In this document: in pieces, positions 24,001 through 27,000 of the stretch
Position numbering within the stretch: position 1 is the first letter of the stretch
Layout: each line of letters starts with the position of its first letter
NCBI RefSeq assembly: GCF_016026235.1
Contig: NZ_CP065614.1
DNA length: 64,000 nt
Direction: 5' to 3' (one strand)
Origin: Escherichia coli
GTDB lineage: Bacteria > Pseudomonadota > Gammaproteobacteria > Enterobacterales > Enterobacteriaceae
Position numbers: made by a program

Positions 24001-27000
24001 CCTGCTTTCTCCTCTTTCTGGTTTTCAGCCCCCATCATCGGTTGAGTTTCGGGAGCCGCGGTTTTGACGTTTTGCGGGGACCTGCCTTTTGTTCCCTCCG
24101 GTATTCACCATCACCTTTTTGAGAACCTTCGCCGCAAGGGGCATCACTGCCACGGCCGGAAACGACTGTCCGGGGATGTACATTTCCCCCCTGGACTGGC
24201 GGAGACGGTTGTGGCTGTCTTTGCCCCCGGCGACAGGGGCTTAAACAGGTGAATGGCACCGGACACAACAACGGGCAGGGACCCGCCGCAACGACGTGAA
24301 GCGCGGTTTGCGAAACGGCGTTGCGCCTTACATCCCGGCGGCCTTTTGCCGGGATGCAGGGAGCGCAGGCCACGGCGCGACAGAGGCGGCGCGACCGGAA
24401 CGGTCGCTGCAAGCCCGGGGTTTCGCGTCAGGGATGGAAGCGTGCGACTGAAAGTCGCTTCAGATATTGATTTGCGTAGACATATGACAAATCCCGCTAT
24501 TCCGGTAGCGGTAGCCTAATCAGAATGGCGTTGCTGGTAACGGCAAGGTCATAAGCTCTGATGACAACGTACTCTCCCTCAGGAAGGGTAAGTCGAGCCG
24601 TGAGGTGAGACGATCGTCTGCAAGCATCATGCGGACAGGAGGCAAGGCTGATCGGTATGGTTAACACACGTGAACCAGTGATAAAGATCATAACCCTGTA
24701 ACAGGTCAAAGATGCTGATAGACCTGAACTAAAAGGTGTGAGGCTGGTTATCCTATGCTTCCTGAGGATACCCGGACACTAAAGCCTCTGGTCGAGAGCT
24801 GGAACCTAACCCGATCTGTATCTGAAGTGAAAACAGGTAAGCCCGTACTTTTGCCCTCAGGGCAAGCGAACCGTAAGGAACGCTGTTGAAAATGCGGGTA
24901 GAGGAGGATGGAAAAAGCAAATGGCCATCTGTAATGGATGGTATAGGGGTTCAAAATTTGCCCTAACGCGAAAGCGTGCAGACTTCCATCTGGTCTTTAA
25001 TCACATGAAACGCCGGAAAGCAGTCTGAAACAGGAGGCAGGCAAGATGAACACGCTAATTAAGGTGTCTGCGGCCCCGCACCTCGGTAGCTGGCACACCA
25101 TCAACTGGAAGCGACAGTACCGAACGGTGAGACGGCTCCAGACGCGGATTGTGAAGGCAACACAGGAGAAGCAATGGCGTAGAGTCAAAGCTCTGCAACG
25201 TCTGCTGACCCGCTCGTTTGCAGCCAAAGCACTGGCTGTCAGACGGGTTACTGAGAACTCCGGGCGTAAAACCCCGGGAATCGACGGAAAAACTTGGAGC
25301 ACGCCGGCAGAGAAATGGAATGCTATCAACAACCTGAGGAGAAACGGCTATAAACCGAGTCCTCTGAAGCGAGTATATATTCCCAAATCCAATGGCAAAC
25401 TCCGCCCGCTGGGTATCCCCACGATGAAAGACAGAGCTATGCAAGCGCTCTACCTGCTCGCTCTGGAACCTGTCGCGGAAACGACTGCGGATCGTAACAG
25501 CTACGGCTTTCGTCCCCACAGAAGTTGTGCTGATGCAATCGAACAGGTTTTCAACAATCTGAACCGGAAAACATCGGCAACGTGGGTTCTGGAAGGGGAT
25601 ATTAAAGGGTGTTTCGACAATATCAGTCATAAATGGTTACTGGAGCATATCCCTATGGATAAACGGATCCTCCGTAGCTGGCTGAATGCCGGATTTATGG
25701 AAAAAGGAAGATTGTTCACTACTGACGCTGGTACACCTCAGGGTGCCCCCTGCTCACCAGTACTGGCAAATATGTGCCTGGACGGACTGGAAACAATTCT
25801 GACGAACCGTTTCGGGCGGAAAGGCACAGCCAAGGCCAGTAAATCCAAAGTGAACTATGTGCGTTACGCCGATGATTTCATTGTGACAGGAATTTCGCGA
25901 GAAATACTGGAAAGCGAAGTAAAACCGCTTATAACTGCATTCATGCAGGAAAGAGGGTTGCTCCTGTCAGAAGAAAAAACGACGGTTACTCACATAAATG
26001 ACGGCTTTGACTTTCTTGGACAAAATGTCAGGAAATACAAGGGGAAGTTACTTATAAAACCCTCTAAACATAACCTGAAAATGTTCCTTAATAAGATTAG
26101 AGCCACCATCGAAGGTAATAAAACTGCCAAAACAGACACACTGTTCAAACGGCTAAACCCTCTGATCAGAGGTTGGACCAACTACCACCAACATGTAGTG
26201 GCAGCCGAAACCTTCAGGTACGTCAACTTCCAACTCTGGAAAAAGATATGGCGATGGTGTCTCAGGAGACATCCTTCCAGAGGTAAACGATGGATACGCC
26301 GCAAATACTTCGACGAAAGCTGGAGGCTTCACTCGAAGGACGCCGACGGTCATCGTTGGGTACTGTATAAAGCATCGACAATACCTATACGACGCCACAT
26401 CAAAATAAAATCCGAAGCAAATCCATACGCCCCCGAGTGGGAGTCTTATTTTGAGAAAAGACAGGCATTGATATGGCTGAAATCTCAAAATGGCAGAAAC
26501 AGGATTGTAGCAATATGGAGAAAACAGGAAAAACGCTGCCCAATATGGGGACAATCGTTCAGCCAGGAAACGGGTTGGGATATCCATCACATTGTGCGAA
26601 AAACACAAGGGGGGAGCGACAATCTGGATAATCTAGTGATGCTGCATCCGAACTGCCACCGTCAACTCCACCACAGTAGTGAAACCGGCTCTCAGTATTG
26701 GGGGCTTATAAAGGCTTGAGCGGAGTGCGGGGAAACTCGCACGCTCCGTTCTTAGGGGGCGGCGGCGCAGCAATGTGCCGCTGCTACCCGACCCGCCAAG
26801 GCGGAGACAGCTTCGCTGGCTCCGTTCACGACAGCCAGCCCCGCCAGGGGGACGCCCGGGAAAGCCATAAACAGGAGAGGAGAGGAACGGAAAGAAGAAG
26901 AGGAAGAAGAACAATAACAGGCACGGTAACCACAGAAAAATAACATCAGAAAAAAATATTCCGGACACATCATAAACGGGAAGGGTAACGGGCGACGCGT

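Follow-up and report, generated by a model that had tools for sequence, protein, structure and literature searches.

Known Frpo/ssi elements and the probable copy in the window

The Frpo/ssiD element of plasmid F reportedly goes back to Masai and Arai (1997), and Bates (1999) and Nasim (2004) are said to be the sources for ssi1-ssi3 of the IncI1 plasmid ColIb-P9. Promoters of the Frpo type set the time at which a conjugative plasmid first expresses its genes on entry, among them anti-defence and SOS-suppressing genes, and thereby bear on how resistance and virulence plasmids spread. In F, Frpo1 (ssp1a) was placed upstream of ygeA and ygeB and found to be required for early ygeA expression, as its deletion abolished early ygeA-sfGFP and lowered transfer (Couturier et al. 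2023, PMC9849209). Moreover, ssp1a transcripts prime strand conversion in vivo (bioRxiv 2026.01.09.698686), and ssi1-ssi3 of ColIb-P9 have been treated as class 1 ssDNA promoters (Wen 2025, PMC12672017).

Here, a stretch of 64,000 nt from the Escherichia coli contig NZ_CP065614.1 (the window) was analysed, in which an initial annotation had described the block at 24030-24440 as GC-rich, full of long inverted repeats and possibly of the Frpo/ssi type. All three descriptions were borne out. The GC fraction was 0.61-0.675 across 24100-24499 (0.61-0.68 when rounded) and 0.39-0.55 on the gene side, while a total of 14 inverted-repeat pairs were found in 23950-24500, with arms including 29, 19 and 18 nt. 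Furthermore, residues 1-351 of ssiD (D90178, sequence from the supplement of Samuel et al. 2024) aligned end to end by blastn with positions 24029-24330, and the identity to F Frpo1 was ~98% outside one 48-nt gap. Thus aligned, this interval is almost certainly the orthologue of F Frpo1, which counts as a class 1 ssDNA promoter, and the block is very probably the plasmid's own copy of that single-strand promoter in the form of an apex-deleted derivative. No second class 1 Frpo copy was present within the window. An element of the Frpo1 type is already known and well studied in F, and the locus represents no new kind of element.

The likeness to F Frpo1 covers the whole 351-nt ssiD fragment, the position, the strand relative to nic and the hairpin, while the window copy differs from it in lacking the 48-nt tip, in having a Frpo2-type upstream flank and in carrying a group II intron 112 nt upstream (Table 1). 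F Frpo2 (ssp1b), located upstream of ssb-yfjA-yfjB-psiB-psiA, has the same architecture and a 5′ arm identical to that of the window copy. In the insect-metagenome Frpo' candidates (Samuel et al. 2024), a 6-bp GC tip replaces the A/T hairpin. The ColIb-P9 elements ssi1-ssi3 belong to the same family, since the apical core TGTCCGGGGG...CATCT..CCCCTGGAC is common to both and the paired middle stem is shared, with compensatory changes; their lower stem and flanks have diverged and, unlike the window copy, they keep the A/T apical hairpin. Finally, plasmid pO177A2 (NZ_CP023674.1) shares the 48-nt deletion and has likewise lost ssb-psiB-hok; it has no intron and, unlike the window copy, carries a Frpo2-type 3′ arm.

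Table 1. Coordinates of the features discussed, given as positions in the window (T-strand, transferred strand)
Feature	Position	Strand	Basis or remark
oriT nic-site motif, GTGGGGTGT/GGTGCTTT	21868-21884	+	exact match, single
ygeB (DUF932, 273 aa)	22773-23594	-	99% identical to F YgeB; RefSeq annotation of identical plasmid
ygeA (orf95, 95 aa)	23713-24000	-	94/95 residues identical to F protein; first gene downstream of block
52-aa ORF, WP_000275769.1	24025-24183	-	RefSeq annotation; within 5′ arm
Almost certain orthologue of F ssiD/Frpo (Frpo1, ssp1a)	24029-24330	+ (T-strand)	blastn
Long imperfect hairpin, ~270 nt	24046-24316	+	MFE fold, repeat pairs I1-I4 and I10
Hairpin 5′ arm	24046-24172	+	MFE fold
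Hairpin 3′ arm	24173-24316	+	MFE fold
Candidate promoter pair TTGAGA-17-CATCAC	24119-24147	+ (5′ arm)	hexamer scan of family alignment
48-nt deletion junction	24172/24173	+	alignments to intron-less plasmid and F
Two extra hairpins (region 24323-24430)	24323-24364 and ~24376-24430	+	repeat I5, fold
Homing site, 5′ exon part	24429-24441	+	IBS2 CAGGG 24429-24433, AT, IBS1 GGAAGC 24436-24441
Complete group II intron, 2351 nt	24442-26792	+	Rfam RF02012 and RF00029
Intron 5′ end, GTGCG	24442	+	GUGYG-type end
RF02012 match	24493-24642	+	Rfam
EBS2, CCCTG	24694-24698	+	
EBS1, GCTTCC	24757-24762	+	
Reverse transcriptase/maturase ORF, 557 aa, intact	25046-26719	+	TIGR04416, 380 bits
Intron domains V-VI	26716-26792	+	Rfam RF00029
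Intron 3′ exon and flank	26793-27290	+	in F, this sequence lies upstream of Frpo2, not Frpo1 (alignment to F, L002)

Transferred strand and folding of the block

The nic site was identified by a motif, the nic sequence of the F oriT. It places the cut at 21876/21877, with traM, traJ and FinP on the opposite side of nic from the block. As this motif is found on the + strand, the + strand is the transferred one, entering 5′ to 3′ towards higher coordinates, and not the - strand as had been proposed; hence, the + strand is the one required to fold. Folding energy had also been considered for choosing the strand and was indecisive, as both strands folded well, so that the choice was settled by the nic motif. 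The block starts 2.15 kb past nic, in the leading region. It also follows from the motif that the T-strand serves as the template for ygeA and ygeB, which are both intact and lie on the - strand, with the block directly upstream of them in the transcriptional sense, as the initial annotation had stated.

The long, stable stem-loop sought by folding the transferred strand was found on the + strand. As ssDNA, the + strand of 24001-24441 reached -116.7 kcal/mol (z -6.55), a value equalled by none of 100 shuffles of the same sequence (mean -87.5, sd 4.5), and the - strand of the block gave a z of -5.99. For 300-nt windows taken stepwise over the + strand between nic (21877) and position 30000 (approximately the first 8 kb), the mean energy was -43.9 kcal/mol (sd 11.4), and values below -75 kcal/mol, the cut-off for mining ssDNA promoters in PMC12672017, appeared only for starts at 24017-24157, with a minimum of -86.3 kcal/mol in 21877-30000. 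The architecture of the MFE hairpin is that of F Frpo1. Moreover, among 12 family members (IncF, ColIb-P9, Serratia and insect-metagenome copies), compensatory changes were detected in 17 of the 47 consensus pairs, both sides being altered with the pairing kept. The two extra hairpins at 24323-24430 are part of the conserved repeat unit (Frpo1 and Frpo2), outside the ssiD fragment. Rfam yielded no family for the hairpin DNA element, its matches in the region being those of the group II intron only. Furthermore, a linear sigma-70 scan of 23900-24500 for an ordinary duplex promoter returned no site, as expected for a promoter existing only when folded.

The following steps are established for F, and we infer them for the window copy. 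The + strand would enter the recipient 5′ to 3′ from nic, and the block would then fold into the imperfect hairpin, the stem of which would imitate a duplex sigma-70 promoter. The host RNA polymerase would start at this hairpin, reading the T-strand towards lower coordinates, and the ygeA-ygeB mRNA would be made while the complementary strand is still missing. This transcript could also serve as a primer for the synthesis of that strand, and the promoter would be switched off once the DNA has become duplex.

Apex deletion and possible promoter activity

The 48 nt missing from the window copy correspond to the A/T-rich apical hairpin GGGGCAGACCGCAAAACTTTTTGCCTGCTTTTGGGCAAAAAGTTTTGC (GCAAAAnTTTTTG...CAAAAAnTTTTG), which is present in all five references (F Frpo1, F Frpo2 and ColIb-P9 ssi1-3), and of 2121 matching plasmid records, only 13 had the two sides of the deletion junction directly joined. 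In addition to the Frpo2-identical 5′ arm, the 3′ arm is of the Frpo1 type and not of the Frpo2 type. Judged by its Frpo2-type upstream flank, the window copy is a Frpo1/Frpo2 recombinant from which the ssb-psiB-hok segment was lost. The genes driven by Frpo2 are absent from the window, and the remainder of the leading region has decayed. In particular, comparison with F and folding revealed no class 2 ssDNA promoter upstream of the antirestriction gene, where the F homology ends ~75 nt before the ATG and the folding was no better than that of shuffles.

The proposal of an ssDNA promoter thus stands as far as the Frpo1 homology and the position are concerned, but with the A/T apical hairpin gone its activity may not be assumed. 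Three candidate placements of the promoter boxes resulted from the hexamer scan. The best retained pair, TTGAGA-17-CATCAC (8 of 12 matches), points towards the apex, has its candidate -10 opposite a mismatched stretch of the stem, and is conserved in the IncF, Serratia and insect copies as well as kept in the window copy. The other two (TGGGCA-17-TGCATT and TTGCGG-17-TGGACT) have lost their -35 in the window copy, these hexamers being within the deleted segment. Samuel et al. 2024 described a UP element, rich in A+T, that precedes the -35, and no tract of the Frpo element other than the deleted apical hairpin is strongly A/T-rich. Overall, the chances that the window copy would still work as a promoter at a useful level appear evenly balanced.

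It is quite possible that the block is instead an inactive relic, the 48-nt deletion having taken the -35 and the UP-like part, so that it folds without recruiting RNA polymerase and ygeA-ygeB are expressed only later or never. Such a loss is in line with the presence of the apical hairpin in every reference, with the two candidate -35 hexamers inside the deleted segment and with the rarity of the deletion; besides, the plasmid has also lost the ssb-psiB-hok segment and the class 2 promoter, and the decay of the remaining leading region makes a relic plausible. However, both hairpin arms and the downstream genes are undamaged, and the best-scoring hexamer pair is conserved in the IncF, Serratia and insect copies and retained. 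Moreover, the A/T hairpin is naturally missing from the insect-metagenome Frpo' copies, in which the rest is kept, and pO177A2, which PLSDB types as conjugative, has the same deletion on a different 3′ arm.

As a separate observation, the last part of the 3′ arm included in the Frpo2-acrIIA4 construct (Samuel et al. 2024) is GGCGACAGGGAC. Depending on what flanks the construct after integration, this may speak against the TTGAGA placement, and it was not relied on.

A protein-coding block, in which the 52-aa ORF (68 aa in other plasmids) would be a real small gene driving the conservation, is very unlikely. The statement that the block held no plausible ORF was strictly incorrect, as RefSeq annotates this one, although it was probably right in that the ORF is not a gene. 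Several IncF, Klebsiella and Serratia copies have the frame open; however, the ORF has no NCBIfam match, its start codon and N-terminus change with the 48-nt deletion, and the reading frame is broken in insect_Frpo6p and missing from the ssi copies of ColIb-P9. Furthermore, where the 5′ arm has changed, compensatory changes are found in the arm that pairs with it, which is the pattern of a structure and not of a protein, and the label 'single-stranded DNA-binding protein' has no family-model support for a protein of this size. With no family match and a frame broken or absent in diverged members, the ORF was rejected as an unlikely gene.

Taken as an apex-deleted Frpo1, the locus has a limited value as a natural deletion variant, offering a ready-made test of which hairpin parts are needed. 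The lineage with a tipless Frpo1 before ygeA-ygeB and without ssb-psiB-hok includes Shigella boydii and plasmids of human E. coli, with a relationship to the Shigella-type invasion plasmid.

The neighbouring group II intron

The group II intron begins with GTGCG exactly where the initial annotation had put it. On the other hand, the abutment that had been claimed does not extend to the promoter hairpin: 112 nt separate the end of the ssiD homology from the intron, the insertion point of which is a site conserved in primary sequence. As the intron is located on the side facing away from the genes, it leaves both the hairpin and the ygeA-ygeB unit intact. The suggested comparison with intron-less plasmids defined a precise junction after GGAAGC: empty homing sites (GGATGGAAGC/CCGCCAGGGCGG) were found in F (two, at the upstream edges of Frpo1 and Frpo2), L002 (two) and L008. 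The same junction occurred in six copies of the intron, one of which (L007) lies upstream of a different repeat type. The intron is rare, with 13 near-full copies in PLSDB, and no second uninterrupted homing site was present within the window.

Both EBS2 and EBS1 are complementary to the exon sequence CAGGG-AT-GGAAGC. A related intron, found in ~1000 plasmids, shares 88 identical 3′ bases, the 5′ end and the domain layout with the window intron. Like the latter, it is oriented with its sense strand on the T-strand and lies just upstream of a Frpo/ssi copy. Its homing site differs (GCCGA-AG-GTGCGC), with matching changes in both EBS loops. This pairing and its covariation account for the site, so that the choice is based on sequence and not, as had been suggested, on structured DNA. 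The intron is a separate element, and base pairing guided its homing to a conserved 13-nt site. The C-terminal end of its maturase (residues 491-546) gave a weak HNH-type match to an IscB endonuclease model (31 bits, below the cut-off), which suggests ordinary duplex-DNA homing. Leading-region group II introns have been described in FII-33 plasmids (pHN7A8, 2343 bp; PMC8765060), and an intron entered the leading region of p15ESBL in the course of experimental evolution (PMC10104558); in our reading, both probably correspond to the related intron of ~1000 plasmids.

We consider it unlikely that the apex-deleted copy is still active and shows its tip to be dispensable, or that the intron family is specialised on homing sites at the upstream edge of ssDNA-promoter repeats. 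In the first case, the conserved A/T-rich tip would be dispensable and the core would be ~250 nt long. In the second, the intron sense strand would always coincide with the transferred strand, so that a resident copy could reverse-splice directly into the single strand arriving during conjugation and in this way pass between plasmids.

It is scarcely credible that the hairpins form a structural landing pad for the intron, as terminator stems do for class C introns, with this association as the main biology: in all cases examined, the window intron and the related one had a Frpo/ssi copy at a distance of 110-230 nt, but the EBS loops of each match its own exon, the L007 intron occupies the same 13-nt site beside a different repeat type, and the HNH-type match points to ordinary duplex-DNA homing. 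Under sequence-based homing, the recurrence beside Frpo/ssi copies is explained by the homing sites belonging to a repeated leading-region module.

That one intron family is found again and again beside Frpo/ssi repeats is, in its own right, a small and checkable observation on the sites where introns persist on plasmids.

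Identity of the structured block and its plasmid context

Alignment to known Frpo/ssi sequences, a check proposed in the initial annotation, showed that F ssiD (D90178) matches 24029-24330 of the + strand over its full length; this sequence is among the five Frpo/ssi references that Samuel et al. 2024 list (Supplementary file 4). Compared with F, the block was nearly identical to the upstream region of ygeA, with a 3′ arm of the Frpo1 type, not the Frpo2 type. The predicted fold (24046-24316) was a long imperfect hairpin matching that of F, and 17 of the 47 consensus pairs were preserved by two-sided changes when 12 members of the family (IncF, Klebsiella, ColIb-P9 ssi1-3, Serratia and insect metagenome) were aligned. 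Thus, the suspected Frpo/ssi-type ssDNA promoter was borne out as an identity by the alignment, the shared fold and the compensatory pairs: the block is F Frpo1/ssiD, an element already known. The window copy resembles F Frpo1 in sequence, 3′ arm type, place upstream of ygeA and fold, but lacks its 48-nt tip. Couturier et al. 2023 (PMC9849209), who use the name Frpo1, reported that early ygeA-sfGFP expression in transconjugants was abolished without it and that its deletion lowered transfer from about 92% to 25%. The same element is called ssp1a in a 2026 preprint, according to which synthesis of the complementary strand is primed in vivo by ssp1a transcripts (bioRxiv 2026.01.09.698686). Close relatives were found in >5000 PLSDB plasmids, mostly with 2-3 copies per plasmid.

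The GC richness and hairpin density first noticed were confirmed, with a GC fraction of up to 0.61-0.675, 14 inverted-repeat pairs counted in the block region and a folding energy of −116.7 kcal/mol (z −6.55) for the + strand of 24001-24441 as ssDNA; the − strand of this stretch gave z −5.99. Among 300-nt sliding windows on the T-strand (the strand transferred in conjugation), taken from nic to 30000, only those starting at 24017-24157 fell below −75 kcal/mol, the cut-off of Wen et al. for mining ssDNA promoters (PMC12672017).

The plasmid to which the region belongs is conjugative and F-like, and the 742 bases around the block showed 100% identity to pCFSAN029787_01 of E. coli CFSAN029787. 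The nic-site motif of F oriT, GTGGGGTGT|GGTGCTTT, lay on the + strand, and the block follows nic at a distance of 2.15 kb. Therefore, the transferred strand is the + strand, which would enter the recipient 5′ to 3′, toward higher coordinates, and the minus strand had been wrongly named; the long imperfect hairpin anticipated on folding was found, the strand to fold being the + strand. The block does lie upstream of the orf95 and DUF932 genes, as first described, and the template of both is the T-strand. In the otherwise identical pCFSAN029787_01, an IS600 separated the SLT and DUF932 genes (L001:3512-5073), which was absent from the window at 22478-22772; the window therefore derives from a close relative and not from that record itself.

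The block had been described as having no plausible ORF. This is not strictly correct, as RefSeq does annotate one of 52 aa, treated here as an annotation artefact: the ORF had no protein family match, its frame was broken or absent in diverged copies, and substitutions in the arm bearing it were matched by changes on the opposite arm. Plasmids keeping the tip had a 68-aa version (L002:6326-6532, −, in an intron-less plasmid), whose occasional label ‘single-stranded DNA-binding protein’ looks like a propagated mis-annotation.

Features of the window and loci of the related intron
Feature	Coordinates	Strand	Remark
FinP and traJ leader	about 21000		
traM	21171-21554	−	
F nic-site motif	21868-21884	+	single occurrence
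DUF932 gene	22773-23594	−	99% identical to F YgeB
orf95	23713-24000	−	99% identical to F YgeA
52-aa ORF	24025-24183	−	RefSeq, hypothetical protein, inside 5′ arm
TTGAGA-17-CATCAC	24119-24147		candidate −35/−10, 5′ arm
Group II intron, complete	24442-26792		Rfam domain I and domain V-VI
EBS2 CCCTG	24694-24698		pairs with exon CAGGG
EBS1 GCTTCC	24757-24762		pairs with exon GGAAGC
Antirestriction gene	27741-28166	−	
Domain I of two additional group II introns, from a different class (RF01999)	29515-29633, 54497-54615	+	Rfam
Separate domain V-VI	59322-59402	−	Rfam
RnaG sRNA	51086-51205	+	Rfam
ALIL pseudoknots (three)	46727-46843, 53257-53373, 57196-57312		Rfam
Related intron	L009:1172-4088, L010:1239-4088, L011:760-3588, L012:672-3588		four plasmids

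Loss of the hairpin tip and candidate promoters

The 48 nt absent between 24172 and 24173 were the A/T-rich hairpin tip (GCAAAACTTTTTGCC...GGCAAAAAGTTTTGC), which, unlike the window copy, F Frpo1, F Frpo2 and ColIb-P9 ssi1-3 all retain. With a 70-nt probe across the deletion junction, only 13 of 2121 matching records were contiguous. Three of these were cattle plasmids of the pO177A2 type, and the other ten were plasmids of human E. coli or Shigella boydii; of the ten, at least nine were also among the near-full or partial intron matches. The cattle E. coli plasmid pO177A2 (NZ_CP023674.1, 1392-1692) had the same deletion boundaries and the same ssb-psiB-hok loss as the window; however, its 3′ arm was of the Frpo2 type and it had no intron. 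This pattern points to either recurrent deletion, with short CGGG repeats flanking it at a hairpin foot, or exchange of arms between repeat copies.

A hexamer scan on the family alignment yielded three candidate −35/−10 placements. The first, TGGGCA-17-TGCATT, has its −10 (TACATT in the window) in a mismatched bubble beside the tip; the second, TTGCGG-17-TGGACT, for which the tip would serve as UP element, agrees best with how Samuel et al. describe the promoter; and TTGAGA-17-CATCAC, the best match of the three, was shared by the IncF, Serratia and insect copies. The −35 elements of the first two were gone with the deletion, and the third placement was intact. Insect-metagenome candidates are naturally devoid of the tip, which argues mildly for its being dispensable. 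The chances that the tip-deleted copy is still active as a promoter are judged to be even. A modest addition is this rare tip-deleted recombinant form of Frpo1 as a candidate promoter.

Recombination and decay of the leading region

Beyond the intron, 26793-27290 corresponded to the flank found upstream of Frpo2 in F (L003:5640-6190). Therefore, the segment of roughly 5.4 kb between Frpo1 and Frpo2 in F (ssb-yfjA-yfjB-psiB-psiA-hok) is missing, as recombination between the repeats would give, and none of these genes was found in the window. Judged from its flanks, the window copy is a Frpo1 × Frpo2 recombination product, such as Couturier et al. predicted as possible (PMC9849209). Elsewhere, the leading region is decayed. 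Upstream of the antirestriction gene, homology to F ended about 75 nt before the ATG and gave way to ISEc60-type sequence (28167-28700), where no folding beyond that of shuffles was found (z −0.52). F carries a class 2 ssDNA promoter (ssp2/Frpo3) here, which seems to have been lost from the window, cut off by IS sequence.

ALIL frameshift pseudoknots belong to IS3-family elements, and RnaG, an sRNA of Shigella-type invasion plasmids, is antisense to icsA there. These elements and the further Rfam intron matches identify the window as a virulence plasmid of the invasion-plasmid type, rich in IS elements and introns, to which an F-like transfer region is joined.

The group II intron and its choice of site

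The intron encodes a 557-aa reverse transcriptase/maturase, whose C-terminal end has a weak HNH-type match. Its GTGCG start at 24442 was correctly placed, but does not abut the promoter: the ssiD homology ends 112 nt short of the insertion site, which lies on the side opposite ygeA, and the hairpin is therefore untouched. Comparison with intron-less plasmids, as had been proposed, defined a precise insertion, the empty site being GGATGGAAGC|CCGCCAGGGCGG. The same junction was found in six intron copies, one of which, in an E. albertii plasmid, adjoins a different repeat type.

The suggestion that the intron targeted a structured DNA site was rejected, since EBS1 and EBS2 pair with the exon, and in L009 the loops of a related intron (GCGCAC and TCGGC) fit the exon of that intron (GCCGA-AG-GTGCGC); the target is therefore chosen by base pairing, not by DNA structure. 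In L010, the exon departs from that of L009 in the IBS1 stretch. The two introns have 88 identical 3′ bases in common, but differ in homing site, with matching EBS1/EBS2 changes. About 1000 PLSDB plasmids carry the related intron, among them IncF (Klebsiella, E. coli) and IncK2/Z plasmids. In each of the four plasmids examined, the distance between this intron and a class 1 Frpo/ssi copy was 175-230 nt, with both on the same strand and in the same orientation. That one intron family recurrently neighbours Frpo/ssi repeats is a further modest addition. The related intron seems to be the one described from the leading region of FII-33 plasmids (PMC8765060); in experimental evolution, the leading region of a plasmid acquired a new junction formed by a putative group II intron (PMC10104558).

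Furthermore, one E. albertii strain harboured two plasmids, pESA134_1 and pESA134_2, with one intron copy each, both 90.7% identical to the window intron. One copy was at the Frpo1 site and the other upstream of a methylase-associated repeat (L007 2300-2500, in pESA134_2), where the site had one IBS1 mismatch (GGAAAC), a pattern consistent with recent intron homing between these co-resident plasmids.
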